Of a DNA stretch of 64,000 nt, positions 3,061 to 58,370 are shown piece by piece (the stretch's first letter is position 1; every line of letters begins with the position of its first letter). The stretch is from Candidatus Saccharimonadales bacterium (GTDB lineage Bacteria > Patescibacteriota > Saccharimonadia > Saccharimonadales > UBA10212): the NCBI GenBank assembly GCA_049521895.1, contig JBEKOJ010000001.1, positions 482,717-546,716 of the forward strand, read 5' to 3'. The position numbers and the translations under genes are program-made. The notes under the pieces are model-generated. The model did no database searches, had not been told where the DNA came from, and saw only the letters and a program-made list of their open reading frames with translations.

Positions 3061-3080
3061 TCAGGTTGAAGTCTATTTAA

Positions 3081-3102
3081 AATACTTGACTTGCTAAGTA
3101 TT
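3081..3102. repeat. 22-bp palindrome family copy (AATACTTGAC-TT-GCTAAGTATT)
   Basis: Imperfect copy located immediately 3' of the stop of the minus-strand gene 3105..3803. Confidence 0.7.
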
Positions 3103-3104
3103 TA

Positions 3105-3803
3105 TTAATGGGTGCGGATGTGGTCGATCAACCTCTGGGCCAGCTCGCGGTTACGATATTGAGAAGCCGCGTCAGTGACCCCCCTTAAAATCTCCTTAGC
3201 TACTCTAGGAACCTCGTCGTTGACTACCAGGATAAATCGTTCGTTTTGGATAACTGCTTCCAATTCTTCTTTAGCACTGTGCAATCTTTTAGCACGCTCT
3301 ACGTAACTCATGTGGCCTCGCCCGTCTAGGCGCTGCATCCAAATTTCAAAACTCGGTGGCAAAAGAAAAACTGGACGCAAGTCTGGAACTCGCTGTAAAA
3401 TTTCTTCCGCTCCCCATATATCTATCCTTAGTAACGGTTTCTTGCCGACATTTAGTACAAGCTCGTAAGCTGCCAGACTAGTGCCCGAGACTTGGATATT
3501 ATGAATATTTTTGACCTCAATCATGGCATCAGAATCCAGCAAGTTCAACATCTCTTCTTCGCTGACAAACCAATAACTCTGCCCATTTGACTCATCTGGC
3601 CTGGGTTGGCGTGTGGTGTGGTTAACTACGTATTGCCAATTACTAATTTTCTGAATGTATTGTTCAATGGCGTCTTTACCCGAACCAGTCGTCCCGGCAA
3701 GTATGTGAGGTGGATTCTGCGACAAGAGTTGGACTGCCTCTGCCGGCATTTTGTAGTGTTTTACTAAATCCAGAAGCTTACTGTGAGTATTATCCATTTG
3801 CAA
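3105..3803 (-). CDS. Guanylate-kinase-like P-loop protein (paralog 2)
   Basis: P-loop GTTGSGKD and a GK-type motif HTTRQPRPDESNGQSYWFVSEEEM. Its start abuts the stop of the upstream paralog with no gap. Confidence 0.6.
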   Translation of the reverse strand: MQMDNTHSKLLDLVKHYKMPAEAVQLLSQNPPHILAGTTGSGKDAIEQYIQKISNWQYVVNHTTRQPRPDESNGQSYWFVSEEEMLNLLDSDAMIEVKNIHNIQVSGTSLAAYELVLNVGKKPLLRIDIWGAEEILQRVPDLRPVFLLPPSFEIWMQRLDGRGHMSYVERAKRLHSAKEELEAVIQNERFILVVNDEVPRVAKEILRGVTDAASQYRNRELAQRLIDHIRTH

Positions 3804-10131: not shown

Positions 10132-11427
10132 ATGCACGTCTATTTTTCGGGGATTGGCGGTACCGGCATCAGTGCTTTGGCGGTCATCGCTAAAGAGGCC
10201 GGGTATGATGTTAGCGGTTCGGATGCCCGCGACAGCCAGTATCTCAAATGGTTGCGCAAAAAAGGCATCAGTGACATACACGTCGGTTTAACTCACGAGC
10301 AAATTGCCTCCGTACACCAAAAACATCCTATAGATTGGTTCATTTATGGCTCAGCCCAGCCGTTAGATTTCCCCGATAACCCAGAGTTTGCTTTTTGCGA
10401 CGAGATGGGCATCAAAAAGTCAAAGCGCGACGAGTTGCTTAATAAAATTATTACTGACAAAAAGCTTAAACTAATCGCCATTGCTGGCACTCATGGCAAA
10501 ACTACCACTACCGCCATGGCTATTTGGCTATTTAAGCAGCTTAGCATTCCGGTAAGTTACTCCGTGGGCGCCAAGCTTAGTTTTGGCGAGACCGGCGAAT
10601 TTAACCCCTCTAGTCAATATTTCGTCTATGAAGCAGACGAGTTTGACCGTAATTTCTTGAGCTTTCACCCTACGTTTTCCCTAATAGCCGGCATCGACTG
10701 GGACCATCCAGATATTTTCCCAACCCGCGACTCTTACTACGACGCTTTCCGGCAATTTCTGGGGCAGAGTGCCCATAGCATTACCTGGCAATCAGATGCG
10801 ACCAAGCTAGGTGTCCGTCAATCGGCTGTACTACGTGTGCTAAACGGTGAAGATCCCCAGATAGACCGGCAGCTTAAGCTGGCCGGCAGGGTCAATCGGC
10901 TGGATGCCTGGCTGGTAGCCAACGGTCTGCAACCAATCGTCGGTAAAGATTTGGATGAACTAATAGAAATTCTCAACCGCTTTCCAGGCTTGTCACGGCG
11001 TTTTGAGCAGATCGCTCCTAATTTGTATAGTGATTATGCGCATACGCCGCCCAAAATTCGCGGAGCTTTACAACTGGCCCACGAAGTCGCTGGCAATAAT
11101 GTGGTGGTCGTTTATGAAGGCTTACATAATACACGCCAGCACTTTATTAAGAAGGAGCTAGCTAGCTTATTTGACGACGTTAAGCAGCTCTATATTATGC
11201 CTAGCTATCTGGCTCGCGAAGATCAAACCTTAAAGCTACTGTCCCCTGCTGATTTACTTAACATGTTAAGTAAATCTTCGAAGTTACATGCTCAGACAGC
11301 TGCACTTAATGATATATTGGCCAAAGATATCCGTAAGCATACTTCCCAAGGCAACCTGGTGCTCTGCCTTAGCGCCGGCGGCGGCGGTTCCTTGGACGAA
11401 TGGCTCCGTAGGGTTTTTGCCGCTTAA
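10132..11427 (+). CDS. Mur ligase family protein (MurC/Mpl-like)
   Basis: N-terminal Rossmann motif FSGIGGTGISALAVIAKEAGYDVSGSD, ATP site IAGTHGKTTTTAM, and YEADEFDRNF...DWDHPDIF. Confidence 0.8.
   Translation: MHVYFSGIGGTGISALAVIAKEAGYDVSGSDARDSQYLKWLRKKGISDIHVGLTHEQIASVHQKHPIDWFIYGSAQPLDFPDNPEFAFCDEMGIKKSKRDELLNKIITDKKLKLIAIAGTHGKTTTTAMAIWLFKQLSIPVSYSVGAKLSFGETGEFNPSSQYFVYEADEFDRNFLSFHPTFSLIAGIDWDHPDIFPTRDSYYDAFRQFLGQSAHSITWQSDATKLGVRQSAVLRVLNGEDPQIDRQLKLAGRVNRLDAWLVANGLQPIVGKDLDELIEILNRFPGLSRRFEQIAPNLYSDYAHTPPKIRGALQLAHEVAGNNVVVVYEGLHNTRQHFIKKELASLFDDVKQLYIMPSYLAREDQTLKLLSPADLLNMLSKSSKLHAQTAALNDILAKDIRKHTSQGNLVLCLSAGGGGSLDEWLRRVFAA
11252..11275. repeat. Perfect 24-bp palindrome ATTTACTTAACATGTTAAGTAAAT inside a CDS
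   Basis: It shares the core TACTTAAC-NN-GTTAAGTA with the intergenic palindrome family. It encodes LLNMLS in the Mur ligase gene. Confidence 0.75.
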
Positions 11428-13567: not shown

Positions 13568-13589
13568 AATACTTGACTAGTCAAGTATT
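13568..13589. repeat. 22-bp palindrome family copy (perfect: AATACTTGAC-TA-GTCAAGTATT)
   Basis: Located 9 nt 3' of the stop of the minus-strand gene 13598..15340. Confidence 0.8.
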
Positions 13590-13597: not shown

Positions 13598-15340
13598 TTA
13601 CTGGCCAAAGGCTGGTTCGTAGTCGGTGACTTTAAGCGGCGTGTCACCATGGGTGTCCATAATGTACAGCTCGCTGCCGCCTTTGCTGACCAGCAAATAG
13701 TTGTCCGTATACCAGCCATAAGTGCTGTAATCGCTCAGGTTTAAGATAGTTTTTGGACTACTACCGCTAGCATCCCCCAAGATCACGGCAAGTTTGCCAT
13801 CGCGCGGCTCGCTCCAAAAAGTCTGGTTGCCGCTTGGTGAGAATAAGTATGTGTAGCTACTGGCGTAGAGTTGGTTGCTGCTCAGAGTAACTTGCTTGGG
13901 TGTACTGCCAACGATGTAATCAAAGTAGGTCGTGATGGTCATGTCGGCTGATTCATCCATGATATAAACCCCCACCGGACTATGCTGGACGAACTGCACG
14001 ATGTCATTCGCGGGATAGGTGCCAACAGACTGGTGATTCTGACCATCGACGCTTATAATTTGCAGGCTGTCTTGCTTGCTATTTAGTACCGTTGGGTCAC
14101 TTGAGCCGCTGCTCCAAGTTTTGCCATAAACTACGTCGTTGCCAGAGAGGACGACTGTGTTGTAGTTTTCGTTAGCATTAGTGGTGGCGTCACTGCCGGC
14201 ACTTTGATCCAGCAAGGTGGTCCGGCCAGTAGTAGCATCGTAGCTTTTGAGTTTGTTAAGGCCTTGCTGCCAGTCCGGTAAATCTTGGCGGGCTACGGTA
14301 TAGATAAGCGAATCGCCGATCCAGCCGATCATGTTAAATATGGCGTTGCCGGAATCGGCCTGTAGCAGTTTGTCGTCGGCTGCGGCCAGCACGTAAAGTT
14401 GTGGCATGGCATCGGTGGTCGTGCGTTTGGAGACTAGCGCCACGTACTGGCCATCGGGCGATTGCAGTAAAAAGGTGTTACCAGCTTCTTCATTACCGGT
14501 GGCAGCCACCACAGTTTGGGCGTCGCTGCCGTCCAGGTTAGCCTTCATTACGTCTAGGCTGCCAGTACGCTTACTCAAAAAGTAAATCTTGCCGGCCGGC
14601 GTAAGTTTAAAGTCATTTTCCTCGATCTTCTGGCTACTGGTTTTTAATGTCACGCTGGCGTTGTTGTAGCCGCTTAGGTTCAAAGTGGCCTTTTGCGATG
14701 AGGCATTTGCCGGCACGACGATTGTAGCCGTGCCATCACTGCCAGTCTTAGATGTCGTATCAGCAACCTCGATAGTCGCGTCAGCCAAGACTTTGCCGCT
14801 AATTAGGTTGGTGATCTTGATTTTGACCTGCCGGCCGGTGGCTACTACCGGGATATCGGGGGTGGATTTTTGGTTGAGGATTGGCACCAATACGCTGACC
14901 TGCTTGCTTTGGTAATACTTTTTGGTGATTTGCAAGCTGCGGTGTCCAGCTTTTACACCGTGCAGGGTCACTTTGCCGCTGCCATTTGTCGTCCCACTGA
15001 CTCCGGTAATACTAACAGTAGCGCCACTGACTGGGGTATTGGCTGTGGAGTCAGAGACTTCGATCGTGAAGCTCTTTTTAAGTACCAAGCCGGCAGCCTG
15101 GTAGCGCGTCCAAGGGACTCCGCCGATGATAAGCAGCAAAATTATGATTGTGGCCGGTATGGACCACTTTTTGTGGCTTTTGTACCAGTTTTTAAAACGG
15201 TGCCAGTGCCGCCAATGTGAACTACCCGCCGCGGGTTTTTCGGTTTTAGGTTCTGACCCTGGTTCGGCCTGGGGCCCAGGCTGTTCCGTATCTAGTTCAG
15301 GCTCTGTCGATTCGTTTGCAGGGACTTGTTCATCTTCCAT
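13598..15340 (-). CDS. Membrane-anchored surface protein with carboxypeptidase-regulatory-like and TolB-like beta-propeller regions
   Basis: 580 aa with an N-terminal TM helix, Ig/CarboxypepD_reg-like repeats (VSGATVSITGVSGTTNGSGKVTL) and propeller-like repeats (SPDGQYVALVS). Confidence 0.6.
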   Translation of the reverse strand: MEDEQVPANESTEPELDTEQPGPQAEPGSEPKTEKPAAGSSHWRHWHRFKNWYKSHKKWSIPATIIILLLIIGGVPWTRYQAAGLVLKKSFTIEVSDSTANTPVSGATVSITGVSGTTNGSGKVTLHGVKAGHRSLQITKKYYQSKQVSVLVPILNQKSTPDIPVVATGRQVKIKITNLISGKVLADATIEVADTTSKTGSDGTATIVVPANASSQKATLNLSGYNNASVTLKTSSQKIEENDFKLTPAGKIYFLSKRTGSLDVMKANLDGSDAQTVVAATGNEEAGNTFLLQSPDGQYVALVSKRTTTDAMPQLYVLAAADDKLLQADSGNAIFNMIGWIGDSLIYTVARQDLPDWQQGLNKLKSYDATTGRTTLLDQSAGSDATTNANENYNTVVLSGNDVVYGKTWSSGSSDPTVLNSKQDSLQIISVDGQNHQSVGTYPANDIVQFVQHSPVGVYIMDESADMTITTYFDYIVGSTPKQVTLSSNQLYASSYTYLFSPSGNQTFWSEPRDGKLAVILGDASGSSPKTILNLSDYSTYGWYTDNYLLVSKGGSELYIMDTHGDTPLKVTDYEPAFGQ

Positions 15341-18624: not shown

Positions 18625-18663
18625 TAATAGGCAGTAACACCGGCGGGAATACATCAAGCCCAA

Positions 18664-18685
18664 AATACTTAACTTGTTAAGTATT
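18664..18685. repeat. 22-bp palindrome family copy (perfect: AATACTTAAC-TT-GTTAAGTATT)
   Basis: Located 40 nt 3' of the MMPL stop. Confidence 0.8.
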
Positions 18686-18753
18686 TCCTGTCAGCGGGGA
18701 GTTTATGGACCAGGAATGCGCGCCAAACCCCAGAATCTAAATCTCATACACCC

Positions 18754-20967: not shown

Positions 20968-20988
20968 AAGTTTAATTGTATCGCCAAA

Positions 20989-21060
20989 CCCAGCACCTAG
21001 TGCTGAGATTATCTGCCTTTGGTAGATACTTTGTAAAAATACTCAGCACTAGGTGCTGGG
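20989..21060. repeat. 72-bp palindromic element with perfect 19-bp arms
   Basis: CCCAGCACCTAGTGCTGAG (20989-21007) pairs with CTCAGCACTAGGTGCTGGG (21042-21060). CAAACC lies on both flanks. Confidence 0.75.
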
Positions 21061-21065
21061 CAAAC

Positions 21066-22101: not shown

Positions 22102-23415
22102 TTATGGTGCCAACCTGTTAATATCTCTAGGAAATAGTGTTGCTTCCTTTACGTTATTTAAGCCGATAATTTTTTCGGTTAATCGCTCTAGGCCCAAACC
22201 GAAGCCGCCATGAGGTGGCAGACCGTATTTAAAGGCTTGCAGGTAGTTCTTAAGACCAGGATCTTCTGGGTCGCCGACGGCCATTTTTTTGAGCTGCTTA
22301 ACCAGAGTGTCGTAGCGGTGCTCACGCATGCTGGTAGTAGCAATCTCCACACCACGGAAGAGTAGGTCAGCACGCTCGGCAAATTTCGGTTTGCCATCTA
22401 TGAGTTTGTGGTAAAACTTGGCCTCGGCTGCCGGCCATTCGGTGACAAATATGGCTTCTGAGCTAAGTTCTTTGGCGGCATATTCACAAATCCAGCGTTC
22501 CTCATCGGGCCGCAGGTCGTTTTCGCCAATGGTATTTTCGCCCGTGGCTTTGGAATATTTTTCGTGGATTTCGGCCATGGTCATAGCTGGAAATTCGGCA
22601 GGCAAAACCGGCTTTTTGGCATTCCAGAGGTTCAGCTGGGCCTCGCATTTCTCCCAAACATCTTTGACGACGGCATTAACTAAATTACTTAACAAGTTAA
22701 GTAATTCAGGGAAGGTGATAAAGCCCATCTCAACATCTATCGTTATAAATTCGGTCATGTGGCGCGTAGTGGCCGACGGTTCGGCGCGGTAAGTCGGGTT
22801 AATTTCAAAAACCCGCTCAAATACTCCCACCATCATCTGCTTATAAAACTGGGCGCTTTGGGCCAATGTTGCCTCTTTACCAAAATAATCCAGTTTGAAA
22901 ACCTCTGCCCCTCCCTCGGTAGCGCCAGGCAGCAGCTTGGGTGAGTTGAACTGGGTAAAATCTTGGCCATTCAGATATTTGCGGATGGCCTCTTCGGTCT
23001 CGGCTTGGATTTTGAATATTGCCTGTTCGCGGTTGTTGCGCAGCCCGATCACGCGTGCATCAAAAAGCGTGTCCAAATTTTCCGGCTTGTGGCTTAGGGG
23101 TTTATCAATTTCTACCGGCGACTCGTCCGTGACTGGTACGTCTACGGTAATTTTCGGCTCATGAATTTCCGCCCCGCCCGGTGCCCGCGGTTCATCAACT
23201 ACTTTTCCGGTGATAGCCAGGATGCTGCCGATCTGCAGGCCGCGCAGTTTTTCAACCTCGCCGTCCTCGCTCAATACGATTTGGACCAAACCGGAGCGGT
23301 CACGCATGACAATAAAGTTAATGCCGCCAATTAACCGTTTTTTGTGCAGCCAGCCTTGGATTTTAATCTCTTGGCCAACGTGGGATTTCACGTCGCGTGC
23401 TAAAACTCGCTCCAT
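22102..23415 (-). CDS. aspS: Aspartate--tRNA ligase, archaeal/type-2 form
   Basis: 437 aa with an OB-fold N-terminus and class II motifs: FNSPKLLPGATEGGAEVFKLDYFGKEATLAQSAQFYKQ, FRAEPSATTRHMTEF, GGFGLGLERL. Confidence 0.85.
   Translation of the reverse strand: MERVLARDVKSHVGQEIKIQGWLHKKRLIGGINFIVMRDRSGLVQIVLSEDGEVEKLRGLQIGSILAITGKVVDEPRAPGGAEIHEPKITVDVPVTDESPVEIDKPLSHKPENLDTLFDARVIGLRNNREQAIFKIQAETEEAIRKYLNGQDFTQFNSPKLLPGATEGGAEVFKLDYFGKEATLAQSAQFYKQMMVGVFERVFEINPTYRAEPSATTRHMTEFITIDVEMGFITFPELLNLLSNLVNAVVKDVWEKCEAQLNLWNAKKPVLPAEFPAMTMAEIHEKYSKATGENTIGENDLRPDEERWICEYAAKELSSEAIFVTEWPAAEAKFYHKLIDGKPKFAERADLLFRGVEIATTSMREHRYDTLVKQLKKMAVGDPEDPGLKNYLQAFKYGLPPHGGFGLGLERLTEKIIGLNNVKEATLFPRDINRLAP
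22683..22706. repeat. 24-bp palindrome AATTACTTAAC-AA-GTTAAGTAATT inside a CDS
   Basis: Has the same core as the palindrome family and encodes LLNLLS within aspS. Confidence 0.7.
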
Positions 23416-26925: not shown

Positions 26926-26936
26926 GACTTTATATA

Positions 26937-26958
26937 AATACTTAACAAGCTAAGTATT
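26937..26958. repeat. 22-bp palindrome family copy (AATACTTAAC-AA-GCTAAGTATT)
   Basis: Located 12 nt 3' of the NRAMP stop. Confidence 0.75.
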
Positions 26959-27187
26959 TCCTACACCTTTTAGCTTGAGAGCTTTCGGGGTAGAATTGAA
27001 TAAGATGAAACGATACTTACGGCCTCTGCGTTTAGATGCAACGCAAGGCGCCAGTGAGGAACGGAGTGAAATGTATTTAACATACATTGAAAGAGTACCG
27101 CAGCTGGCAACGCCGCGGTGCGCTATAAGCGCTTGCGGCGTTTTCGGCTTGGCCGGAAAGCAGGCCAGCGCGGCGCAGAGGCTGTAG

Positions 27188-28945: not shown

Positions 28946-28987
28946 CTCCGCGTCACGCCAGTCTGTCGTCCAACGGAGCCGGATCTG

Positions 28988-29082
28988 AATACTTAACTTG
29001 CCTGCCCCGCATTAAATCCTGAGCGTAGTAGTCTGTAATCAGATTACAGAGCATCAAGATTTTAGTGTCGGGGTTAAGTATT
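28988..29082. repeat. Split copy of the palindrome family enclosing a 75-nt insert
   Basis: AATACTTAAC (28988-28997) and GTTAAGTATT (29073-29082) flank an insert that contains the nested 19-bp palindrome TCTGTAATCAGATTACAGA (29032-29050). Confidence 0.65.
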
Positions 29083-29611
29083 TATGCTGCTTGTGATTTG
29101 CAGGCAGTTTAGAGCTGAGTTTCATCGCCAGCGCGTAGGCTCCGAATAAACTTGCAGTGTAGATTAAGTCGCTAAGCGCGGTGTTGCGGAAAAACGGCAA
29201 AGCCATGCTATAGCAGAGCGCCAAACCGCTCCAAGTGTGGGTGTACATATTGCCCCACAGCCAGACTGCAAAGTTGGTCACGAAAAAGAAAAACAGCGAC
29301 GCAGAGATTGTTAAAGATGCTCCCCGTAAAACACTTGGCTTTCTTAACCAATAGCTGCTAGCTAGGGCAATCAATATGTAACAACCCCAGGTAACAGGCA
29401 TGATATTGTAAAAACCAATGACCAAGTCAGATAGTGCCATGGCTACAAACGGCACCCAAAGCGCTAGCCGGCGAGGCAAAATTGCCCCGCCAAAAATGGC
29501 TACGGCCGCCACCGGTGCAAAATTAGCCGGATGTGGCAGCAGTCTGAGTCCTACGGCTAATAATATAAGGCTGATGGCTATAGCCAGGTTAAGAGTGGAC
29601 CTTTTTATCAT
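29054..29611 (-). CDS. Polytopic membrane protein (DUF6580-like; possible vitamin/cobalamin-related transporter component)
   Basis: LPHPANFAPVAAVAIFGGAILP and 5-6 TM helices. ATG 29611 overlaps the upstream stop (ATGA). Confidence 0.55.
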   Translation of the reverse strand: MIKRSTLNLAIAISLILLAVGLRLLPHPANFAPVAAVAIFGGAILPRRLALWVPFVAMALSDLVIGFYNIMPVTWGCYILIALASSYWLRKPSVLRGASLTISASLFFFFVTNFAVWLWGNMYTHTWSGLALCYSMALPFFRNTALSDLIYTASLFGAYALAMKLSSKLPANHKQHKYLTPTLKS

Positions 29612-30530: not shown

Positions 30531-30605
30531 TCCGGAGTAGCTCAATGGTAGAGCAATCGACTGTTAATCGATTGGTTGCCGGTTCGAGTCCGGCCTCCGG
30601 AGCCA
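30531..30605 (+). tRNA. tRNA-Asn (anticodon GUU), CCA encoded
   Basis: Cloverleaf: acceptor TCCGGAG/CTCCGGA, anticodon stem ATCGA/TCGAT with loop CTGTTAA, T-arm GCCGG-TTCGAGT-CCGGC, discriminator G, then CCA. Confidence 0.95.
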
Positions 30606-32171
30606 TTGTGAGCGAACAGCCGAAAAAGCGGCTGTTTTCTCTTTAGAAGAGCTGAAATTGTTGGTTCTAACCTTGTTAAAAGCTCTTTCTAGCTTTGGAT
30701 ACTCATTTCGTATTGGCACGAACCATAAATTTGGCTCAATTGTCAGTTGTTTTTCTTTGAGAATGAAGCTACTACCGAGGGTAGTAAAGATATCCCTCCG
30801 CTCCTGCTTCCCACCTGCTTTAAAGGATTGGCGAGCGTGTGTGGCAAAATCAAAGGTATTTTCGGTTAGTTCTAACCATTTTTCGGCACGCTCTTCTGTA
30901 TCACGCAATTGTTCTTTTAGTCGGTTGATTTCTCCAACGAGCGTCTCACGCTGCTCAATATACTCATCATCGTTTATTAGCTCTCTTAGTCTTAGCTTTG
31001 TGAGTGTGTCTAGTTGCTTCTGCGTAGCAAGCAATGCTTTGGCTTGATTTTCGTGTATCACTGTTCTTTCACTGATTTCTTGGTCATTATTTTCTCTAAG
31101 CACGTCTAAAGCCCAGTCTCGGAACTCTGGGAGAATTGTAATGCTGGCTAGATGTTCGTCAATTTGTTTTTCTAGCTCTGTTTCTGTTACTGAGCCTTTT
31201 TGGGAACAGGGCTTCTTATGGGTGCAGTGATAATAGACGTATTCTCGGGTCTCACCAGTGCTTTTAATATATTTTTGCTTAACTTCTGCCGTTATAGTGC
31301 AGCCACACTCGCCGCAAACAATAGGTCCACGATAGGTCATTTCGTGTTTCTTGGGCCGTGGCTTGCCCTTACGACCTAGTATTTGCTGCACTCTATCATA
31401 TTCAGCTAGGGTTACCATTGGCTTATGGCTGCCCTGATGTAGTTGTCCTAGATACCTAATTTGGCCTGCATAGAAAGGATTAGTAAAAATTCCATACAAA
31501 GCCGAACGAGACAAAGGGCCGCCGCCTGTTTTGCGTGTTTTTCTTAATCTAAACCCTAAATCAAACTCTGCGATATCAAGTATTTCAGGAACAGAGTAAT
31601 TACCTGTTAGCATCAGGTCCCACATTTTTCTTACAATAGGGAAACGCTCAGGGTCAATAATTATAATCTTTGAACCTTTATCTCTGTCGGGAGTATTTAA
31701 ATAGCCCGTTGGGGCCCAGCCTGGCTTCCAGCCCAGCTGTATCTTTTTTTCATTTCCACGTTTTACATCTTTGCTTAATTTGGCCGAGAAATACTGCGAT
31801 TGAGACATTACCATTTGGAGCATCATCATACCCTCTGGCGAGTTATCAAAAGTGTAAGAGCCGAACTTTAAGTCCAAAATCTTGCCATTTCTTATTCTGT
31901 AAGTGATTGAGGCAGCGTCTATTTCATTCCTAGATAAACGGTCAGGGTGCCAAGAGATTATTCCGTGTGCTTCACCCTCATCTATTCTTTTCAGCATCTG
32001 CTCAAAAATCGGCCTGTTGTTTGGTGTAAATGCACTGGCACTCTCAGGCGGTAGCTCAATTATCTCTAAGTCTGAAAATATCTGTCGGGCGTTATCTATT
32101 TGGCTTTGCAGTGAAAGAACCTGACGCTCTTCCTCTTCTGAGGATTTTCTAGTGTAAAGAAAGTATTTCAT
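30564..32171 (-). CDS. Large serine recombinase (integrase)
   Basis: N-terminal resolvase domain YTRKSSEEEE...HPDRLSRN, a recombinase domain, and a Zn ribbon CGECGCTITAEV...YYHCTHKK with a coiled coil. The last 14 codons are antisense to the tRNA. Confidence 0.9.
   Translation of the reverse strand: MKYFLYTRKSSEEEERQVLSLQSQIDNARQIFSDLEIIELPPESASAFTPNNRPIFEQMLKRIDEGEAHGIISWHPDRLSRNEIDAASITYRIRNGKILDLKFGSYTFDNSPEGMMMLQMVMSQSQYFSAKLSKDVKRGNEKKIQLGWKPGWAPTGYLNTPDRDKGSKIIIIDPERFPIVRKMWDLMLTGNYSVPEILDIAEFDLGFRLRKTRKTGGGPLSRSALYGIFTNPFYAGQIRYLGQLHQGSHKPMVTLAEYDRVQQILGRKGKPRPKKHEMTYRGPIVCGECGCTITAEVKQKYIKSTGETREYVYYHCTHKKPCSQKGSVTETELEKQIDEHLASITILPEFRDWALDVLRENNDQEISERTVIHENQAKALLATQKQLDTLTKLRLRELINDDEYIEQRETLVGEINRLKEQLRDTEERAEKWLELTENTFDFATHARQSFKAGGKQERRDIFTTLGSSFILKEKQLTIEPNLWFVPIRNEYPKLERAFNKVRTNNFSSSKEKTAAFSAVRSQWLRRPDSNRQPID
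30579..30604. repeat. attL-like 26-bp direct repeat (tRNA 3' end)
   Basis: CCGGTTCGAGTCCGGCCTCCGGAGCC, identical to 44908-44933. Confidence 0.85.
30616..30640 (+). terminator. Intrinsic terminator after tRNA-Asn
   Basis: Stem ACAGCCG / CGGCTGT, loop AAAAAG, then TTTT. Confidence 0.6.
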
Positions 32172-32758
32172 AGTAATTTTCCGAGGTCAGCTTTATTATA
32201 CGCCCCAGAGGCCATCTCATACAGCTTGTAGAGTCTTAGTTGCTTTTTTGTAAGTCTACCTGCATAAGTTCGGCGTTTGATTGATGCTTGAAGTTCTTCA
32301 ATTTTTTGTTCGGTTTCTAATACTTTGAAAAGACCGCTCCATTTATAGGAACGGTTTTTATTTCTGCTTTCGTAAGTTAGGTCATAACAATGGCGGCAGC
32401 CAAAATGGTCCCCATCTTTGTATAGCTTACGAACTCGCCGTTCGCAGGACCTACCGTTTATAACGAGCGGGCATATAAACCACCATCGCTCACCACCCAG
32501 GTTGCAGGGCGTGGACTCCAACCTGACCTTATAATTAAAAGATTTCTTTTCTCCTGACCATCTGTCCGTCTGTTGATAGCTGAGGCTAAAATACGGAAAA
32601 TCATCAAATATATTTGCTGTAAAACTGACCGAACTTTTACTATCGCTAAACCCCGAAGTCCAGCTTAGTGTTCCGCTCATTATCCCTTTCAAATAGCCTT
32701 GCTGTTTGATGTAGCTAAGGTCAATACTCAACAGGTTGTCAGCTTCTGTTTTGCTCAT
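32168..32758 (-). CDS. Hypothetical Cys-rich (zinc-ribbon-like) protein coupled to the recombinase
   Basis: Contains CPLVINGRSCERR...GCRHCYDLTYESR. Its stop overlaps the recombinase ATG (ATGA). Confidence 0.5.
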   Translation of the reverse strand: MSKTEADNLLSIDLSYIKQQGYLKGIMSGTLSWTSGFSDSKSSVSFTANIFDDFPYFSLSYQQTDRWSGEKKSFNYKVRLESTPCNLGGERWWFICPLVINGRSCERRVRKLYKDGDHFGCRHCYDLTYESRNKNRSYKWSGLFKVLETEQKIEELQASIKRRTYAGRLTKKQLRLYKLYEMASGAYNKADLGKLL

Positions 32759-32823
32759 AGTGTTTCAATAATCTTCCGAAATCATTAGACATTGTTAGCC
32801 TTTTACTCTGTTGGGTTATTGCC

Positions 32824-33357
32824 TTATTTTTGCCCTTTTTCCGAAACGAACCCATTTTTCCTAGCCTCTTGTGCTTTCAAAAGCTCACGAATAGCTTTGA
32901 AGAGGTTACGTTCTATTTCTGTTTCATAACGAAGATAAATACCACCTAAAAGCTCAATGTCTGCTTCCTTAATCTTCGGCTCATAACCCTGATGTATTAT
33001 TTTTACTTCTGAAAGCGGCATTAGGTCCCAGTTGTTAGTCGTCTCGGTTTTTGTTGGGTCATTTATTTTCTTTAACTGTTCAGCTTCTGCGGCAACAACC
33101 CGCTGCAGTCGGACATACCAAATCGCAACTCTTTCAACTAACAGCTCTTCAAGAACAGTCGCTGGTTCATAATCAGTATGAAGCCTTGCCTTTATAAGGC
33201 TCGCTTGCTTTGCTTCTTCACCGCTGAGCAGCTCAGTTAAGATGTTATGCCTTACAGCGTTATACTTTGACTTTTCTTTTCCAGCTTCTGTTTTAACGCC
33301 ACCCTTCTTGCTGTTAATGCGGTTTGCCTCTAGCTGCTTATCGCTTACTTCAGCCAT
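32824..33357 (-). CDS. Hypothetical protein (177 aa)
   Basis: ORF in the island's minus-strand module, with a basic N-terminus QLEANRINSKKGGVKTEAGKEKSKYNAVRHN. Confidence 0.5.
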   Translation of the reverse strand: MAEVSDKQLEANRINSKKGGVKTEAGKEKSKYNAVRHNILTELLSGEEAKQASLIKARLHTDYEPATVLEELLVERVAIWYVRLQRVVAAEAEQLKKINDPTKTETTNNWDLMPLSEVKIIHQGYEPKIKEADIELLGGIYLRYETEIERNLFKAIRELLKAQEARKNGFVSEKGQK

Positions 33358-33841
33358 TTTGCAGTCTCCTCTTTAGCTCTTCTCTTTTTCTTAAAAAATC
33401 TTGATACCCTTTTGATGTATTTCTTTGGTTACTCTTAGTAGTAGCTTTCAGGTTTTGGGCATCAGTGGCAGACAATTCATCGCTTTCAAGTTTGCTGGTT
33501 TCCTGCAAACTGGAGGCAAGGTAATTCTCAATCTTTTGGACATTCAGCTTAAAGTGCCGTTTAGCAGGGATACTTTTCCTAACTACTTCAATTAGGCCAA
33601 GGGATTTTAGCTGCCCAATAACTCTTTCCTGTTGTGAACGGCTTAGGCCCGTTTCTAGCTTCATTTCCGCAATTGTTTTGAAGGACCAGACTTTATCCCT
33701 TCCGAGCCCATTCCAATAAAGAAGCTGGCCCAGTAAGATTGATGACTCAACTGAACCTAGCGAATGGGCCAGTCCAGCACTGTATGCAATAGGCTTCTGC
33801 TGGAACATTTTATAAATCCTTTGCTGGTCCTGCTTGCTCAT
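33350..33841 (-). CDS. Putative winged-helix DNA-binding / replication-organiser-like protein
   Basis: LGQLLYWNG...FKTIAEMKLETGLSRSQQERVIGQLKSLGLIEV. An alternative start at 33808 would remove the overlap with the upstream ORF. Confidence 0.45.
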   Translation of the reverse strand: MSKQDQQRIYKMFQQKPIAYSAGLAHSLGSVESSILLGQLLYWNGLGRDKVWSFKTIAEMKLETGLSRSQQERVIGQLKSLGLIEVVRKSIPAKRHFKLNVQKIENYLASSLQETSKLESDELSATDAQNLKATTKSNQRNTSKGYQDFLRKREELKRRLQNG

Positions 33842-34022
33842 CGTAATTCACATATTCATTAGCCTTAGAAGGCCTATTAAAGGGCTTTGAGACCGCTTTG
33901 ATTAGCTGGACCAGCTGTAATCCCTTTTCCTTTGCTTCATCTTCAGTTAGCTCAACATCAAAATGGTCTTTATATAATGCCTGGAATTTTTGCACCTGCT
34001 GGAAAGAGAGTTGCATTTCCAT
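33810..34022 (-). CDS. Hypothetical small protein (70 aa)
   Basis: ORF coupled to both neighbours on the same strand. Confidence 0.4.
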   Translation of the reverse strand: MEMQLSFQQVQKFQALYKDHFDVELTEDEAKEKGLQLVQLIKAVSKPFNRPSKANEYVNYDEQAGPAKDL

Positions 34023-34270
34023 TACACCCCCGAATAAATCCTTGTTTTAAGATGCTTCATAGCATCAAAGTAGGCCTTTGGATTGACCTTCAACTTGTCT
34101 GACCAATAATTATCAACCGCTGTTTTTAGTGCAGGGGTCGTTTCAAACAAGAAGGTAGCTTTGCCAGCTGAAGATTTTTCAATACCTATAACTAAAAAGC
34201 CCTCTGTAACCAGAGCCGAGGATAGGGCTAGGTCAAAGGTTCTAAATTCATAGGAATTGTAATTACTCAT
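34022..34270 (-). CDS. Small hypothetical protein (DUF5659-like by pattern)
   Basis: 82 aa: FDLALSSALVTEGFLVIGIEK...ATFLFETTPALKTAVDNYWSDKLKVNPKAYFDAMKHLKTRIY. Confidence 0.45.
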   Translation of the reverse strand: MSNYNSYEFRTFDLALSSALVTEGFLVIGIEKSSAGKATFLFETTPALKTAVDNYWSDKLKVNPKAYFDAMKHLKTRIYSGV

Positions 34271-34325
34271 CTTAATGATGAGCTTAACCCTATAACCCTA
34301 CCTACGTATAAGGCATCAATTGAGC

Positions 34326-35129
34326 CTAATTGATGCCTACAAGCTTTTTATAATTCCGTATGATTGTTGAGATTTCTGAGTATGTATAAACCTTGTCTTC
34401 GTCTTCAAAAGGGTATTTTTCATCAAATATCGTCGCAATTTCGCTAAGGGTCTTTCCTTCAATTGTTTTGAGCCTGTATGCTTCTGCTCCTTTTTCAAGA
34501 ACATCATAATCGGCTGGCTGATGTTTTTGACGGCTCATATAGCTCAGTCGCTTTTGGTGGAATTTTACTAACGGCCACGCTGCCTTTACCTCATCAAGCG
34601 TAGTATCTTCATCTATAACAATATGAATTTCCTCGTCGTCTTCTCCTGGCTGGTGGGGCACGCCCATTCGGACACCAATTTTATTTCTTATATTTTTGGG
34701 GTTGTTAAGAAGAATATATCCCCTCAAACCATCCTTCCACGAGGGTCCAAGTCTATACTTTATTCTGAGCTGTTTAATATCGTTATAAAAAGCATTTAGC
34801 GGTGCTATGAGATTGATTTCTGCCTGCCTATCTACAAATTTTGTGTAGGGGATTTTTTTAGCAAGTGCGTCTTCTTGAAGTTGCTTGAGCTCTTGTCTAA
34901 ATGTCGGCCAAACTTTGTCGTGCCACTTTTCGGTCTCTTCCCCTATCCAGTGCCACCAAGCTTCCTGCTTACCAGAATTAATATCTTTAAAACCGTTCGC
35001 AGGGATTTTGTAACGTTTTCGGATAGCAGCTATATCTGCTTGAAAATCTGGGCGAGAAGCTAAGATGAGAGACTGCTGTTCTCTTTTGGCTTTACTCTTT
35101 AGAAAAACTTTATCTTCTGAACCCTTCAT
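34326..35129 (-). CDS. Hypothetical protein (267 aa)
   Basis: ORF only. It is the first gene downstream of the XRE regulator. Confidence 0.5.
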   Translation of the reverse strand: MKGSEDKVFLKSKAKREQQSLILASRPDFQADIAAIRKRYKIPANGFKDINSGKQEAWWHWIGEETEKWHDKVWPTFRQELKQLQEDALAKKIPYTKFVDRQAEINLIAPLNAFYNDIKQLRIKYRLGPSWKDGLRGYILLNNPKNIRNKIGVRMGVPHQPGEDDEEIHIVIDEDTTLDEVKAAWPLVKFHQKRLSYMSRQKHQPADYDVLEKGAEAYRLKTIEGKTLSEIATIFDEKYPFEDEDKVYTYSEISTIIRNYKKLVGIN

Positions 35130-35180
35130 AGTAATAGTAATCCTGCTTCAATTATCTACAGGATTGGGCTTAAAGACTAG

Positions 35181-35402
35181 TTAGAGCGGTTTGAACAGGT
35201 CTTTGAGACTGACCTTCAAAGCCTTGGCGATTTTATAAACATTCCCCACGCTAGGGTTGCGTTTGCCTTGTTCAATAAATCCGATATATGTTCTGTGTAA
35301 ATCAACAAGGTCGGCCAATTCCTCTTGGGTTAAGCCGCTTTTTCGTCTTAATTCGGCAACTCTTGCACCGAAATCCTTTATAAATTTTGTTTCTGTCGCC
35401 AC
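35181..35402 (-). CDS. XRE-family helix-turn-helix transcriptional regulator
   Basis: LRRKSGLTQEELADLVDLHRTYIGFIEQGKRNPSVGNVYKIAKAL, with a GTG start. Confidence 0.85.
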   Translation of the reverse strand: MATETKFIKDFGARVAELRRKSGLTQEELADLVDLHRTYIGFIEQGKRNPSVGNVYKIAKALKVSLKDLFKPL

Positions 35403-35406
35403 ACAT

Positions 35407-35467
35407 ACAGTTTGTCGCTAAAAAGTGTTTGCCACCACAGACAGATTGTCGCATAATAACAGACAAT
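35407..35467. promoter_or_regulatory. Divergent promoter/operator region with repeated ACAGNTTGTCGC boxes
   Basis: ACAGTTTGTCGC (35407-35418), ACAGATTGTCGC (35441-35452; GACAGATTGTC is a palindrome), and ACAGACAAT (35459-35467). Confidence 0.45.
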
Positions 35468-35478
35468 AAGGAGTTTTT

Positions 35479-35976
35479 ATGAAAATTAGCAAGGCTTGGT
35501 TCGTGAAACACAAAGTTCTTTCAGTAGTATTGGCTCTTATTGTATTAGGGATAATCGGTGCTGCCGCAGGTGGTAGCAAACCCAACAGCACGGTCAATAG
35601 CAGCACAACAGCAAACACGGCTATTAAAACCCAGCCAGCAGCCAAAGCCCAAACTCAGCAACCTGCTGTGCCAGCCGAATATAAATCTGCTCTCAACCAG
35701 GCTACTTCTTATGCCAACGACCAGCATCTGTCTAAACAAGGAGTATATGACCAGCTAGTTTCACAATACGGAGGTAAGTTCTCAGCAGCCGCTGCACAGT
35801 ATGCAATAGACAATGTGAAGGCTGATTGGAACGCAAACGCTCTTGCACAGGCAAAGGATTACCAAAGTCAGCAGAGCCTATCGCCATCAGCAATTCACGA
35901 CCAATTAACCTCTTCATATGGCGGAAAATTTACGCAGGCTGAGGCAGACTACGCCATTGCCCACCTGAACGATTAG
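35479..35976 (+). CDS. Ltp-like surface (lipo)protein with two Ltp-type repeats (superinfection-exclusion family)
   Basis: An N-terminal TM helix followed by two repeats: YKSALNQATSYANDQHLSKQGVYDQLVSQYGGKFSAAAAQYAIDNV and NALAQAKDYQSQQSLSPSAIHDQLTSSYGGKFTQAEADYAIAHL. Confidence 0.7.
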   Translation: MKISKAWFVKHKVLSVVLALIVLGIIGAAAGGSKPNSTVNSSTTANTAIKTQPAAKAQTQQPAVPAEYKSALNQATSYANDQHLSKQGVYDQLVSQYGGKFSAAAAQYAIDNVKADWNANALAQAKDYQSQQSLSPSAIHDQLTSSYGGKFTQAEADYAIAHLND

Positions 35977-36002
35977 TGAGTTCATCGCAACAGAAATGGA
36001 TT

Positions 36003-36030
36003 GAGGCAGGAAACCCTGCCTCGTTTATTA
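36003..36030 (+). terminator. Intrinsic terminator after the Ltp-like gene
   Basis: Stem GAGGCAGG / CCTGCCTC, loop AAAC, then GTTTATTAT. Confidence 0.65.
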
Positions 36031-36078
36031 TCAAAACGAACAATAAAGAATTAGAATTAAAGTTAAGGTTCTCCGAAG

Positions 36079-40161: not shown

Positions 40162-40174
40162 TGGACACTTGCTT

Positions 40175-41110: not shown

Positions 41111-41123
41111 TTATGATTTGCGA

Positions 41124-44944: not shown

Positions 44945-44966
44945 AATACTTAACAAGTTAAGTATT
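44945..44966. repeat. 22-bp palindrome family copy (perfect: AATACTTAAC-AA-GTTAAGTATT)
   Basis: Located 12 nt beyond the attR-like repeat. Confidence 0.8.
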
Positions 44967-54684: not shown

Positions 54685-55930
54685 CTCCCGAACTACGAAC
54701 TACGAACTACGAACTACAACAGCAAGGCCACGCGTGGCTTTGGTGCATGATTGGTTAATAGGCGGCGGCGCCGAGCGGGTGGTTGAGCAACTGCACAAAA
54801 TGTATCCGGAGGCGCCGATCTACACGTCTTGCTGTTCAAACGAGTGGCGCCAGAAATTGGATGGCAAGGTTGTTACCGGTTATCTGCAGCATTGGCCGTT
54901 CTCGCAACTGCGTAAGTTTTTACCGCCGCTGCGCGGCCTATGGTTCTCGCGCCTCAAACTAGACGGTTACGATTTAGTCATCAGCAGCTCGGGTGCCGAA
55001 GCCAAATTCATCAAAACTCGTAGATCGCATATAGAAGATAGTAGATCGGGCAAAACAAAGAGAATATTGTTTAGGAAAACGGCCAAACTCCTACCTACGA
55101 CCTACGACCTACGATCTGCGAAAGCGGTGCACATCTCGTACATCCACGCGCCAACGCATTACTATTGGAGCCGCTACGACGATTACATGCGCCACCCGGG
55201 TTTTGGCAAATTGGACCCGCTGGCCAGACTTGGACTTAAGGTCTTTGTCAGGCCAATGCGCCGCTGGGATTTCCGCGCTGCCCAGCGTCCTGATTATCTA
55301 ATCGCCAACTCAACTTACACCAAAGAGCAAATAGAAAAATATTACGGCCGCGATGCTGTTGTGATCCACCCGCCAGTTGAGACCAAGCGTTTCAAAATAC
55401 TTAACAAGTCAAGTATTTTACGACACGGTTTTGTCATAGCTGGCCGGCAGACTCCATATAAGCGCATGGATCTTGCTGTGCGCGCTTGTAGCCGGCTTAA
55501 ATTACCGCTGCTGGTTTTGGGTGACGGGCCGGAGCACCGTAAATTAAAAAAGCTAGCAGGACGCAGCATTACGTTTATTAAAAATCCATCCGACGAACAG
55601 GTTGCGGACTATTTCAAATCTTCCCTAGCCTTTATTTTCCCGGGGCTTGATGATTTTGGAGTTGTGGCTGTAGAGGCCATGGCCGCTGGTACGCCAGTAA
55701 TTGCCTACGAAGCCGGTGGTGCTTTGGACTATGTCGAACCGGGTAAAACCGGCTTGTTTTTTGAACCCCAAACTGTTGAGGCTTTGGAGAAAGCCCTGCA
55801 AAAATTCAAGCCTGCTAATTTTAATAATTCAGATATTCAAAAAGCTGCGGGCAAATTTTCAGGCACGGTTTTTGCGAATAACTTTCAAAAATATATTAGC
55901 CAAGTCTTTAAGAACCAGCCTTCTGCTTAG
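54677..55930 (+). CDS. Glycosyltransferase family 4 (GT-B)
   Basis: VALVHDWLIGGGAERV...GRQTPYKRMDLAV...EDFGVVAVEAMAAGTPVIAYEAGG. The start is uncertain: ATG 54677 lies in the repeat, and GTG 54734 gives the canonical VALVHDW N-terminus. Confidence 0.85.
   Translation: MPNSRTTNYELRTTTARPRVALVHDWLIGGGAERVVEQLHKMYPEAPIYTSCCSNEWRQKLDGKVVTGYLQHWPFSQLRKFLPPLRGLWFSRLKLDGYDLVISSSGAEAKFIKTRRSHIEDSRSGKTKRILFRKTAKLLPTTYDLRSAKAVHISYIHAPTHYYWSRYDDYMRHPGFGKLDPLARLGLKVFVRPMRRWDFRAAQRPDYLIANSTYTKEQIEKYYGRDAVVIHPPVETKRFKILNKSSILRHGFVIAGRQTPYKRMDLAVRACSRLKLPLLVLGDGPEHRKLKKLAGRSITFIKNPSDEQVADYFKSSLAFIFPGLDDFGVVAVEAMAAGTPVIAYEAGGALDYVEPGKTGLFFEPQTVEALEKALQKFKPANFNNSDIQKAAGKFSGTVFANNFQKYISQVFKNQPSA
54689..54716. 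repeat. Heptamer tandem repeat (CGAACTA)x4 forming the right flank of the cassette
   Basis: Four exact tandem copies. The reverse complement (TAGTTCG)x4 mirrors the GTAG-rich left flank. Confidence 0.85.
55019..55126. repeat. Miniature GTAG/CTAC word-array element inserted in frame in the GT4 CDS
   Basis: GTAGATCG x2 (55020-55027, 55041-55048), an about 45-nt spacer, then (CCTACGA)x3 (55094-55114). It is translated as RRSHIEDSRSGKTKRILFRKTAKLLPTTYDLRSAKA. Confidence 0.6.
55396..55417. repeat. 22-bp palindrome family copy inside the GT4 CDS (AATACTTAAC-AA-GTCAAGTATT)
   Basis: Encodes ILNKSSI and has one arm mismatch. Confidence 0.7.
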
Positions 55931-57599: not shown

Positions 57600-58370
57600 T
57601 TATGAAAGATATAATATAGTTTCGATAACCGAGGCAGTTTCTTGCCAATTTGCAATGGCTACACAGTCAACGCCCATGACTTTAACGGAATAGTCGTTAC
57701 CGCCTTTGCTCAGCCGGTCGCCAATAAATAAGACATCTTCTTTATTAATACTTAACATGTTAAGTAATTTGGCGATGCCATAGGCTTTGTCTATTCCGGG
57801 CTTGGTGATATCTACAGAGGTGCCGCCACCTACACGAACTTCAAACTCTGGTATAAGTTTAGCGACGTAGTCGCGCAGTTTATATTTTTTTTCGGTAGTT
57901 GGATCCCACTCTGCTTTAAGCCGCACGCCTTCGTCACCCAACTGGGCCACTATATCCTGCCCCAGCGCCGAAAAGGTGATTTGGCTACCACGGTCTTCTA
58001 TAATATCTCCCCAGGTTTTCTTCTCGCGATAGCCAAAATGGTCTATGCCCTGATTAAGGGCTTTAATAATCTTGGCCTTTTGAGGATCAGTGAAATCTTC
58101 GGCGTACTTTTGTGTCCACTTGCCTTTTTCAAATCTGTAATAGCGTGTGCCGGAGGTTGGCATGATATGCAGCTTTTCCAGCTTAGCCGGGTCAGCTTTA
58201 AGGTGCGCCAAAAATTGGCTTTCGAATTGTTCAAATTTACCGCCGCTCATCACGCACACCTGGTACTTTTCCAGCAGGCGGTCAATTAGCTCCGACATGT
58301 GGTCTGTTATCGGTGATTTGCTTGCCGTTAGCGTTCCGTCCAGATCAAAAGCTATGACTTGTCTTTTCAT
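57600..58370 (-). CDS. HAD-IIB hydrolase / phosphomannomutase-like
   Basis: VIAFDLDGTLTASKSPI ... FIGDRLSKGGNDYSV. Confidence 0.7.
   Translation of the reverse strand: MKRQVIAFDLDGTLTASKSPITDHMSELIDRLLEKYQVCVMSGGKFEQFESQFLAHLKADPAKLEKLHIMPTSGTRYYRFEKGKWTQKYAEDFTDPQKAKIIKALNQGIDHFGYREKKTWGDIIEDRGSQITFSALGQDIVAQLGDEGVRLKAEWDPTTEKKYKLRDYVAKLIPEFEVRVGGGTSVDITKPGIDKAYGIAKLLNMLSINKEDVLFIGDRLSKGGNDYSVKVMGVDCVAIANWQETASVIETILYLS
57747..57768. repeat. Palindrome family copy inside the HAD CDS (core TACTTAACATGTTAAGTA)
   Basis: Perfect 18-bp core at 57749-57766, encoding LLNMLS. Confidence 0.7.

Follow-up and report, generated by a model that had tools for sequence, protein, structure and literature searches.

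Introduction

Several kinds of short, repeated DNA signal have been described in bacteria. They include the operators of MarR-family transcription factors, repetitive extragenic palindromic (REP) and related repeats, DNA uptake sequences, the HIP1 palindrome of cyanobacteria, and the attC sites of integrons. In Saccharibacteria, as in other Patescibacteria, genomes are tiny, regulators are very few, and hardly any cis-elements have been characterised. Here, we describe a palindrome with the core TACTTAAC-NN-GTTAAGTA that recurs in a 64,000-nucleotide stretch from a Candidatus Saccharimonadales bacterium (GenBank assembly GCA_049521895.1, contig JBEKOJ010000001.1, positions 482,717 to 546,716). 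We refer to this whole stretch as the window. The palindrome is a DNA-level signal specific to Saccharibacteria. It mixes traits of transcription factor operators, REP-type repeats, and uptake sequences, and has the defining features of none of them.

Among MarR-family proteins, SlyA has the operator TTAGCAAGCTAA. Dimers of this superfamily recognise palindromic operators of around 18 bp (PMC11602129). Like the operators for UrtR, PecS, MftR, and HucR, our motif has dyad symmetry, a length of about 18-24 bp, two conserved arms, and a less constrained centre. Here too, a copy overlaps or abuts the -35 and -10 elements of the regulator's own gene, and one genome has a further copy ahead of an adjacent MFS transporter gene. 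Unlike such operators, the motif is present at roughly 100 copies per genome in the window's clade (an extrapolated number), mostly at gene 3' ends and sometimes inside housekeeping genes. Its arms also co-vary, and survive being split apart, while its spacing does not resemble the TxxCT-N8-AGxxA of UrtR.

REP, enterobacterial repetitive intergenic consensus (ERIC), and Correia elements are likewise short palindromes of high copy number, found after genes or between convergent genes, and able to form hairpins. Their copy number varies between lineages, and small elements nest in their centres, as is the case here. REP and REPIN elements are strictly extragenic, imperfect palindromes that often form doublets, and copies flank the gene for a cognate REP-associated tyrosine transposase (RAYT). 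In contrast, our motif is fixed across a class, four of ten copies in the window are coding, and copies stand alone, without clusters or doublets. We saw no RAYT, and there is no Y1 transposase among the annotated neighbours.

The uptake signal sequences (USS) of Haemophilus and DNA uptake sequences (DUS) of Neisseria are lineage-specific, over-represented exact words. As for our motif, the host group is competent, coding copies arise by point mutation with amino acid effects in a restricted frame, and intergenic copies are terminator-like. The differences are that USS and DUS are defined by an excess of a short, non-palindromic word, whereas our motif is an obligate palindrome of 18-24 bp, with an unenriched half-site, much sparser copies, and a strong bias to gene ends. 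HIP1 (GCGATCGC) is also a palindrome maintained at the DNA level across a large clade. It too is found both inside and outside genes, and is more conserved at orthologous positions than codon usage would predict. HIP1 differs in being 8 bp long, occurring about once per kb, and not concentrating at gene ends.

Finally, the R boxes of attC sites have the consensus RYYYAAC / GTTRRRY. The arms of our motif, ACTTAAC and GTTAAGT, fit the R'' and R' boxes (with a chance fit of about 1 in 1000 per motif). Further shared features are a site immediately past the open reading frame (ORF) and split copies, of 59-100 nt, that fold as hairpins. Our motif differs in having no L boxes, extrahelical bases, or one-directional arrays; most loops are of 2-4 nt, and there is no tyrosine recombinase among annotated neighbours.

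Results

A palindrome in excess over chance

The full consensus is AAATACTTAACNNGTTAAGTATTT. With flanks, the core becomes a 24 bp palindrome, AAATACTTAAC-NN-GTTAAGTATTT, representing the dominant palindrome family of the window. The exact 18-mer, TACTTAACNNGTTAAGTA, is present five times (at 11255, 18666, 22686, 44947, and 57749). Allowing up to two or three mismatches gives nine matches, the extras being at 3083, 13570, 26939, and 55398. A tenth copy is split, with its arms parted by a 72 nt insert. In shuffled versions of the window, 0.00 exact 16-base matches are expected, compared to the five observed, and 0.02-0.32 matches are expected in place of the nine found with mismatches. Across 953 kb, copies with 0, 1, 2, and 3 mismatches number 17, 10, 15, and 5, the perfect class being the commonest. 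Note that the excess is confined to the full palindrome. Lone half-sites number 66 in 1.87 Mb, where about 57 are expected, and we rejected the half-site as a functional unit since it occurs at chance level. Literature searches, by taxon, by concept, and with the sequence itself, found no description of the motif.

A prior reading of the window, made from its letters only (the sequence-only reading), had listed four coding copies, in genes for a Mur ligase, AspS, a GT4 glycosyltransferase, and a HAD protein. We found all four exactly where they had been placed. The list had missed five intergenic copies and the split copy, which is also intergenic. Hence, more than half of the window copies are non-coding. 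The Mur ligase copy had been called a perfect 24 bp palindrome (11252-11275); this is correct, and the symmetry extends to 26 bp. All copies are collected in Table 1. Gene ends in the window are taken from Joint Genome Institute (JGI) gene calls. For loci fetched from other genomes, which carry L-numbers, they are from a crude ORF caller.

Table 1. Palindrome copies in the window, split copies at other loci, and the ~75 nt hairpin element. Coordinates are those of the window unless an L-number is given; a point indicates that no strand is assigned.
Feature	Coordinates	Strand	Remarks
Intergenic copy AAATACTTGACTTGCTAAGTATTT	3080..3103	.	2 mismatches; stop of guanylate kinase gene (3105-3797, minus) 4 nt before copy; just upstream of hrcA promoter/CIRCE region
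Coding copy GATTTACTTAACATGTTAAGTAAATC, Mur-ligase-family gene (10132-11427)	11251..11276	+	26 bp perfect palindrome; reads DLLNMLSKS; 155 nt to gene stop; convergent gene abuts 3 nt past that stop
Intergenic copy AATACTTGACTAGTCAAGTATT	13568..13589	.	Symmetric A->G / T->C double variant, still a perfect palindrome; between convergent genes, 10 nt past stop of 580-aa gene (13598-15340, minus)
Intergenic exact copy AAATACTTAACTTGTTAAGTATTT	18663..18686	.	Between convergent MMPL gene (end 18624) and 201-aa gene (stop 18754)
Coding copy, aspS (22102-23415, minus)	22683..22706	-	Reads LLNLLS
Intergenic copy AAATACTTAACAAGCTAAGTATTT	26936..26959	.	1 mismatch; 13 nt past Nramp stop (26925); precedes conserved leader of Na+/H+ exchanger gene; orthologous spacer in L122/L123 has no copy
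Split copy, arms GAATACTTAACTTG + TTAAGTATTT	28987..29086	.	Conserved 72-75 nt hairpin element between arms; predicted fold of whole -40.5 kcal/mol, z = -5.25; between convergent Na+/H+ exchanger and DUF6580 genes; plain palindrome at same junction in L143, L136
Split copies, orthologues of the preceding	L122, L123
Split copy	L142 13229-13328
Split copy	L140 15057-15115		Orthologue of window copy 13570; different insert, 43 nt
Intergenic exact copy	44945..44966	.	14 nt past 26 nt repeat of tRNA-Asn 3' end (44908-44933); 60 nt upstream of sufS
Coding copy TACTTAACAAGTCAAGTA, GT4 glycosyltransferase gene (54734-55930)	55395..55418	+	One mismatch; reads ILNKSS
Coding copy, HAD-IIB/PMM-like gene (57600-58370, minus)	57749..57766	-	Reads LLNMLS
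~75 nt element	29000-29075; L122 4696-4771; L123 641-716; L142 13243-13317; L080 1939-2013, 6475-6549

We scanned one genome per species and found at least 116 stretches with the motif. Among the 116 matches listed, 85 carry the label Saccharibacteria, Saccharimonadales, or Saccharimonadia. A further ten of those listed are from metagenome-assembled genomes whose label is only Patescibacteria, 'bacterium', or Babeliales, and one or more of these genomes has Saccharibacteria-like genes. The remaining listed matches are scattered singles, as chance predicts. By our estimate, viral contigs with the motif are only about as numerous as expected by chance, and a phage origin was rejected. For proteins encoded by the window, the best named relatives are from Candidatus Saccharibacteria, and four metagenomes contain sequence 100% identical to 17-21 kb of it.

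Density was measured in loci picked via aspS, rather than via the motif. The window's clade has 1.9 copies per 10 kb (0.9 if the aspS site itself is left out), compared to 0.21 per 10 kb, or about one per 50 kb, in other Saccharibacteria. The window's clade is 5-10 times denser. Window shuffles give a chance density of around 0.003 per 10 kb. Within the window, copies are spaced at about one per 7 kb; on contigs of other species, they are at least 100 kb apart.

Stop codons dictate the encoded peptide

According to the sequence-only reading, coding copies are always read as L-L-N-x-L-S, and this in-frame occurrence argued for either a DNA-level site or an insertion. A near-constant reading is indeed seen, with ILNKSS in GT4 as the variant. 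We translated 11251-11279 on both strands. The triplet TAA, at positions 5-7 and 13-15 of the 18-mer, closes two of the three frames per strand. The single open frame, on either strand, is xTA-CTT-AAC-NNG-TTA-AGT, encoding L/I-L-N-x-L-S. Surviving copies within genes must therefore be read in this way, and frame bias provides no evidence about origin or function. We dropped it as an argument. For the same reason, the refutation tests proposed with the sequence-only reading are not diagnostic. We conclude that the LLNxLS peptides are a by-product of the DNA-level palindrome.

Coding copies arise by substitution and are constrained as DNA

The aspS gene of the window is of the non-discriminating type. 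Its 80 orthologues, with 64-96% amino acid identity, are collinear across the site. A clade of about 30 retains TTA CTT (A/G)AC TTG TTA AGT AAT, while more distant orthologues have other peptides in the same columns (for example, DLLKFASG and ELRNFAGG). GAC (Asp) looks to be ancestral, with AAC (Asn) completing the palindrome. Codon usage was compared in 25 non-redundant sequences with a mean nucleotide identity of 72.7%. At conserved Leu columns outside the site, the commonest codon accounts for 48% on average, and none of 28 columns reaches 90%. At the four Leu positions inside the site, the equivalent values are 83-96%. For conserved Ser columns outside the site, the average is 59%, with 0 of 6 reaching 90%; the Ser inside is AGT in 100% of sequences. 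Consistent with this, the best six-codon window of third-position conservation, in the entire aspS gene, is the site itself (codons 238-244).

The six Mur ligase orthologues have no indel at the site, where they read DLKAMLSE or DLKNLLSE. To form the 26 bp palindrome of the window, several substitutions were needed, K->L and E->K among them. In other lineages, copies have evolved at different positions of the Mur ligase gene, so coding copies turn over. The HAD/PMM site is also free of indels, among 120 homologues, and the ancestral peptide is LLDMLS. At the DNA level, the orthologous PMM copy is exact in L213, has one mismatch (GAC) in L214 and two in L215, and is absent from L216, which uses other codons. 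The D->N change towards the motif is found in both aspS and PMM. The GT4 copy sits in a hypervariable interdomain linker that is two codons longer than in orthologues.

Copies are also found repeatedly at the same, orthologous places of recX (14 copies at 13 loci), valS (6), and folD (5). Note that these species were sampled through the motif. Of 120 RecX homologues, 105 contain the peptide xLNKLSx. Apparent co-variation in recX at positions +/-10 (L..N versus I..I) was discarded, as it is seen among exact DNA copies only, and ILNKLSN is the most frequent form in a wider protein sample.

Thus, coding copies arise by point substitution, followed by DNA-level constraint at synonymous sites. Of the two origins offered by the sequence-only reading, insertion of a tolerated in-frame element, which would resemble a Rickettsia palindromic element (RPE), was rejected on the orthologue alignments: aspS, Mur ligase, and PMM are collinear, and only GT4, in its hypervariable linker, has two extra codons. 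The other, a DNA-level site that overrides codon choice, is supported by the synonymous constraint in aspS and the amino acid changes towards the motif.

Intergenic copies adjoin gene ends

All six intergenic copies in the window, including the split copy, follow the end of a gene or the tRNA-Asn 3' end. Across all loci, intergenic copies are mostly 2-7 nt past a stop codon, or the ORF terminates on the motif's own TAA. For many convergent gene pairs, the palindrome is the entire spacer. In an unbiased sample from the window's clade, around 75-80% of copies are intergenic and adjoin stop codons. At orthologous junctions, the motif swaps with other hairpins (for instance, window 20987-21065 is equivalent to L123 9703).

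Intergenic copies have flanks that are complementary beyond the 18-mer. At positions 4-10 outside it, there are 161 complementary pairs, against an expected 123.9 +/- 9.3, and 0 of 5000 permutations reach 161. The mean contiguous complementary extension is 3.78, versus 1.89, and coding copies extend for only 1-2 positions. Both arms are kept around an inserted hairpin at three independent loci (Table 1). The split copies of the window and L122 have exactly the same arms, and an insert that is only about 80% identical. The window copy at 13570 has orthologues with the same variant (L129), the canonical sequence (L161), and a split (L140). Thus, a compensated double change separates TACTTAAC..GTTAAGTA in L161 from TACTTGAC..GTCAAGTA in the window and L129. 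Such changes among two-mismatch copies amount to 2 independent events in about 25 (P ~0.1) and are suggestive only. These features indicate that intergenic copies pair within a strand as hairpins.

Copies sometimes occur in pairs. Tandem copies 54-58 bp apart follow a 309-aa gene in L167 (3506/3564) and L188 (5649/5703). The N-terminus of its product looks PyrB-like (not annotated as such) and the ORF ends on the motif TAA. Overlapping copies form a longer composite palindrome in L059 (6347/6359) and L114 (2262/2274). The window hairpin at 20987-21065 (minus strand; CCCAGCACCTAGTGCTGAG...CTCAGCACTAGGTGCTGGG) is long, GC-richer, and just upstream of the promoter for a 190-aa gene. A palindrome copy takes the equivalent place in L123, L127, and L128.

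The hairpin between the arms of the split copy is a conserved element of about 75 nt, GCCCCGCACTAAATCCTGAGCG...GGAGCTTCAAG..TTTAGTGCTGGGG, with 5 compensatory base pairs. It is nested exactly at the palindrome centre in three lineages and stands alone in L080. This element may represent a small RNA, or else a miniature mobile hairpin with the palindrome loop as its target. Rfam searches with the palindrome region and the 75 nt element gave no match.

A MarR-family gene is the commonest neighbour

We grouped genes beside intergenic copies by clustering. The commonest is of the MarR family (PF01047) and is directly downstream of ksgA/rsmA. At five loci found through the motif (L036, L045, L051, L104, and L117), the palindrome is 16-45 nt upstream of the MarR start codon. 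We also fetched MarR orthologues irrespective of the motif. All three with DNA available (L217, L218, and L219) have a copy at the same place. In L217, this is exact, and L218 has degenerate tandem copies at the MarR promoter. The L219 copy, TACTTGACGCGTTAAGTG, contributes to a near-consensus promoter of TTGACG, 17 nt, and TATAAT; a second copy, which is exact, lies 64 nt ahead of the neighbouring MFS transporter gene. Overall identity within this MarR family falls to about 40%, and the recognition helix, QTEASISRQIK, is better conserved than any other block. As expected for an operator, the palindrome is at the regulator's own promoter across orthologues. This was so for all species examined, and suggests an autoregulatory operator.

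Many of the ksgA-linked MarR orthologues have a Cys-containing tail (H..xC.......C), absent from shorter orthologues. The pattern of residues hints at redox or metal sensing. No transposase or integrase was found among annotated genes beside copies, most adjacent genes having been clustered only and not annotated.

Possible explanations for the palindrome

We tentatively favour, at somewhat below even confidence, an explanation in which the palindrome is an operator for the conserved MarR regulator and has spread to serve as a signal at gene ends, acting as a hairpin, a roadblock, or both. We favour it because it accounts for most of the facts. According to this model, a MarR-family winged-helix homodimer would read the palindrome, and the copy at the MarR promoter would allow autoregulation. 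In these very compact genomes, especially in the window's clade, the same palindrome would have been taken into use where transcription units end. There, it would probably limit transcription from both directions, by means of bound protein, a hairpin, or the two together. Copies within genes, having arisen by substitution, would be held by the same DNA-level constraint. The suggestion of the sequence-only reading that a nucleoid protein might be involved, as one kind of DNA-binding protein, acquires a concrete candidate reader in the MarR-family regulator.

Many observations sit badly with this model. For an operator, half-sites should be independent, without co-variation, and here the arms co-vary. 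Together with the conservation of arms 43-72 nt apart, this is unexpected for a dimer on double-stranded DNA. Since such a dimer does not predict these features, the model has to combine a protein layer with a hairpin layer. Synteny of ksgA and MarR is invariant, and the MarR copy may equally be a gene-end copy for ksgA. Furthermore, the MarR gene of the source genome is outside the window. With regard to ending transcription, copies are just downstream of stop codons or RNA genes, as intrinsic terminators should be, but lack the GC-rich stem and U-tract. Predicted stems are AT-rich (-4 to -11.5 kcal/mol), with 2 G-C pairs in the 8 bp core arm, and the T-run after the stem averages 2.4, versus 2.5 for the A-run before it, irrespective of transcription direction. 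Hence, copies are not classical intrinsic terminators, and canonical GC-rich examples of these are present in the same window. We looked among copies for strand bias of the central dinucleotide, and for U-tract asymmetry, and found none. In one-directional contexts, 5 of 5 degenerate copies have A.C, not G.U, on the sense RNA. Genes that host a copy are followed by a convergent gene in 51% of cases versus 36%, which is not significant per gene family. We therefore rejected the idea that coding copies terminate transcription of convergent neighbours; it fits recX, valS, PMM, Mur ligase, and GT4, but fails for folD and aspS. Finally, conserved mid-gene copies, in recX, valS, folD, and aspS, have no obvious regulatory logic.

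A bolder form of the MarR operator model, which we judge unlikely, makes the palindrome a genome-wide, bidirectional marker for the ends of transcription units. A MarR-type dimer, at some 20-100 sites, would act as a roadblock terminator or insulator that is possibly ligand-responsive, with copies lying inside the facing gene where a convergent pair has no spacer. If true, this would be factor-dependent, sequence-defined termination of a kind not known in bacteria.

A gene-end hairpin that has nothing to do with MarR is a rather unlikely alternative. Here, an RNA or single-stranded DNA stem, recognised by a stem-specific factor, would end or protect transcripts in both directions, like REP or ERIC elements, and the copy beside MarR would belong to the end of ksgA. 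The location of intergenic copies past stop codons and tRNA-Asn, complementary flanks outside the core, retention of both arms in split copies, the compensated change at one orthologous site, and replacement of the motif by other hairpins at orthologous junctions are all as such a stem would predict. However, structure alone does not demand that 16 stem positions be fixed across a whole class, and the stems are weak, AT-rich, and without U-tract polarity, with A.C on the sense strand of degenerate copies. Stepwise substitutions within genes, towards an exact sequence, are left unaccounted for, as is the copy that overlaps the MarR promoter.

The constraint within genes might instead reflect DNA uptake, a suggestion also made by the sequence-only reading. 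Saccharibacteria are naturally competent through ComEC (PMC10633639). If the competence machinery preferred the palindrome, biased uptake and recombination would spread and preserve copies without any local function, and those between genes would be reused as terminator stems. A lineage-specific motif with mostly perfect copies would be expected, as would coding copies that form by substitution in weakly constrained segments, at an amino acid cost, then conserve synonymous sites and recur at orthologous positions. The absence of copies from a 14.3 kb island (see below), and their chance-level number in viral contigs, by our estimate, also fit. Conversely, the palindrome is obligate and its half-site is not enriched, and copies are concentrated beside stop codons rather than scattered by tolerance. 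Arms 43-72 nt apart are still conserved, most Saccharibacteria have only about one copy per 50 kb, and no uptake sequence preference has been reported. Overall, we disfavour this possibility, and consider it improbable; an uptake signal here would be the first outside Proteobacteria.

Still less probable is that copies are substrates for a recombinase or transposase that works on folded single-stranded DNA, as in REP/RAYT systems or at attC sites, and that they delimit gene cassettes. The match to the R boxes, the attC-like architecture of split copies with a variable centre, and the placement of copies directly past ORFs all suggest this. In addition, relatives differ in the genes they have between aspS and the 580-aa gene, with copies at several junctions. 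Yet annotated neighbours include no integrase or Y1 transposase, copies flank housekeeping genes both ways instead of lining up in one-directional arrays, plain copies have perfect symmetry and lack L boxes or extrahelical bases, and coding copies were made by substitution. Another proposal, that the motif is a parS-like site, is not supported. There is no likeness to parS (TGTTTCACGTGAAACA), the arms co-vary, and copies are dispersed and dense rather than few and clustered. A search of the window, and of 1.86 Mb of loci, revealed no parS-like sites. Accordingly, we rejected ParB as a reader, together with Noc, SlmA, and MatP.

The least probable account, which we regard as very remote, is that nothing special has occurred, and that copies reflect either inheritance of a common peptide that uses preferred codons, or an RPE-type selfish insertion in frame. 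Peptides resembling LL(D/N)xLS do already exist in PMM, RecX, and ValRS. This does not explain why the four host proteins are unrelated, why five exact 16-base matches occur where none are expected, or why synonymous codons are fixed well above the aspS background. Nor does it explain distant orthologues that encode other residues with no indel, or the majority of window copies being non-coding.

An exact, class-wide signal of 18-24 bp, tied to one MarR regulator, offers a testable way into the transcription organisation of these bacteria. Genetic tools exist for cultivated Saccharibacteria strains. In practice, the motif could serve as a taxon marker for binning. It also calls for caution with gene callers, since genes end inside it. 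More broadly, this is a natural case of a DNA signal reshaping protein sequences.

Other features of the window

A 14.3 kb island (30579-44933) is inserted at tRNA-Asn. The 26 nt direct repeat, CCGGTTCGAGTCCGGCCTCCGGAGCC, is at 30579-30604 and 44908-44933, the latter being attR. Island genes encode a large serine recombinase (30564-32171, minus), an Xre helix-turn-helix protein, an Ltp-like lipoprotein, a 1059-aa helicase/PLD nuclease, and NUDIX and GIY-YIG proteins. The gene call for the recombinase is missing from two of four related contigs, despite identical DNA. GC content is low, at 39-44%, and there are no palindrome copies. The copy at 44947 is the original sequence downstream of tRNA-Asn, displaced by the island. 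The island brings its own canonical GC-rich terminator, 9 nt past the tRNA (30614-30637). A repeat of about 30 nt, TAGTTCTAACTTCC(T/A)CCACTACGGGGAGC, occurs three times between small island genes (at 41660, 42668, and 43424, in region 41640-43453), with spacings of 1008 and 756 nt.

The Na+/H+ exchanger gene has a leader of about 230 nt (26960-27187) that is around 85% identical to its counterparts in L122 and L123, compared to 65-77% for flanking proteins. Searches of Rfam with this leader gave no match, even at a permissive threshold. The leader is a candidate cis-regulatory RNA (a riboswitch or other leader).

The recX copy raised the possibility of a LexA/SOS box. This was rejected, since the copy is mid-gene and none is near the LexA-domain gene of the window (50126-50629, minus). 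That gene encodes a protein of a type, 160-170 aa in length, having only the LexA DNA-binding domain, without an S24 peptidase, and is matched by L213 18006-18485 and L216 19046-19561. It is inside a polysaccharide (Wzy/GtrA/Bac_transf) cluster and, in relatives, adjoins a second MarR gene.

Separately from its palindrome copy, the GT4 gene has an in-frame insertion of 102 nt (34 codons; 55019-55120) that three orthologues lack. Inverted repeats, CGTAGATCGCA...CGATCTGCG, form its ends, and there are CCTACGA repeats inside. No other copy was found in the sequences compared. The insertion may be a small inserted palindromic element.

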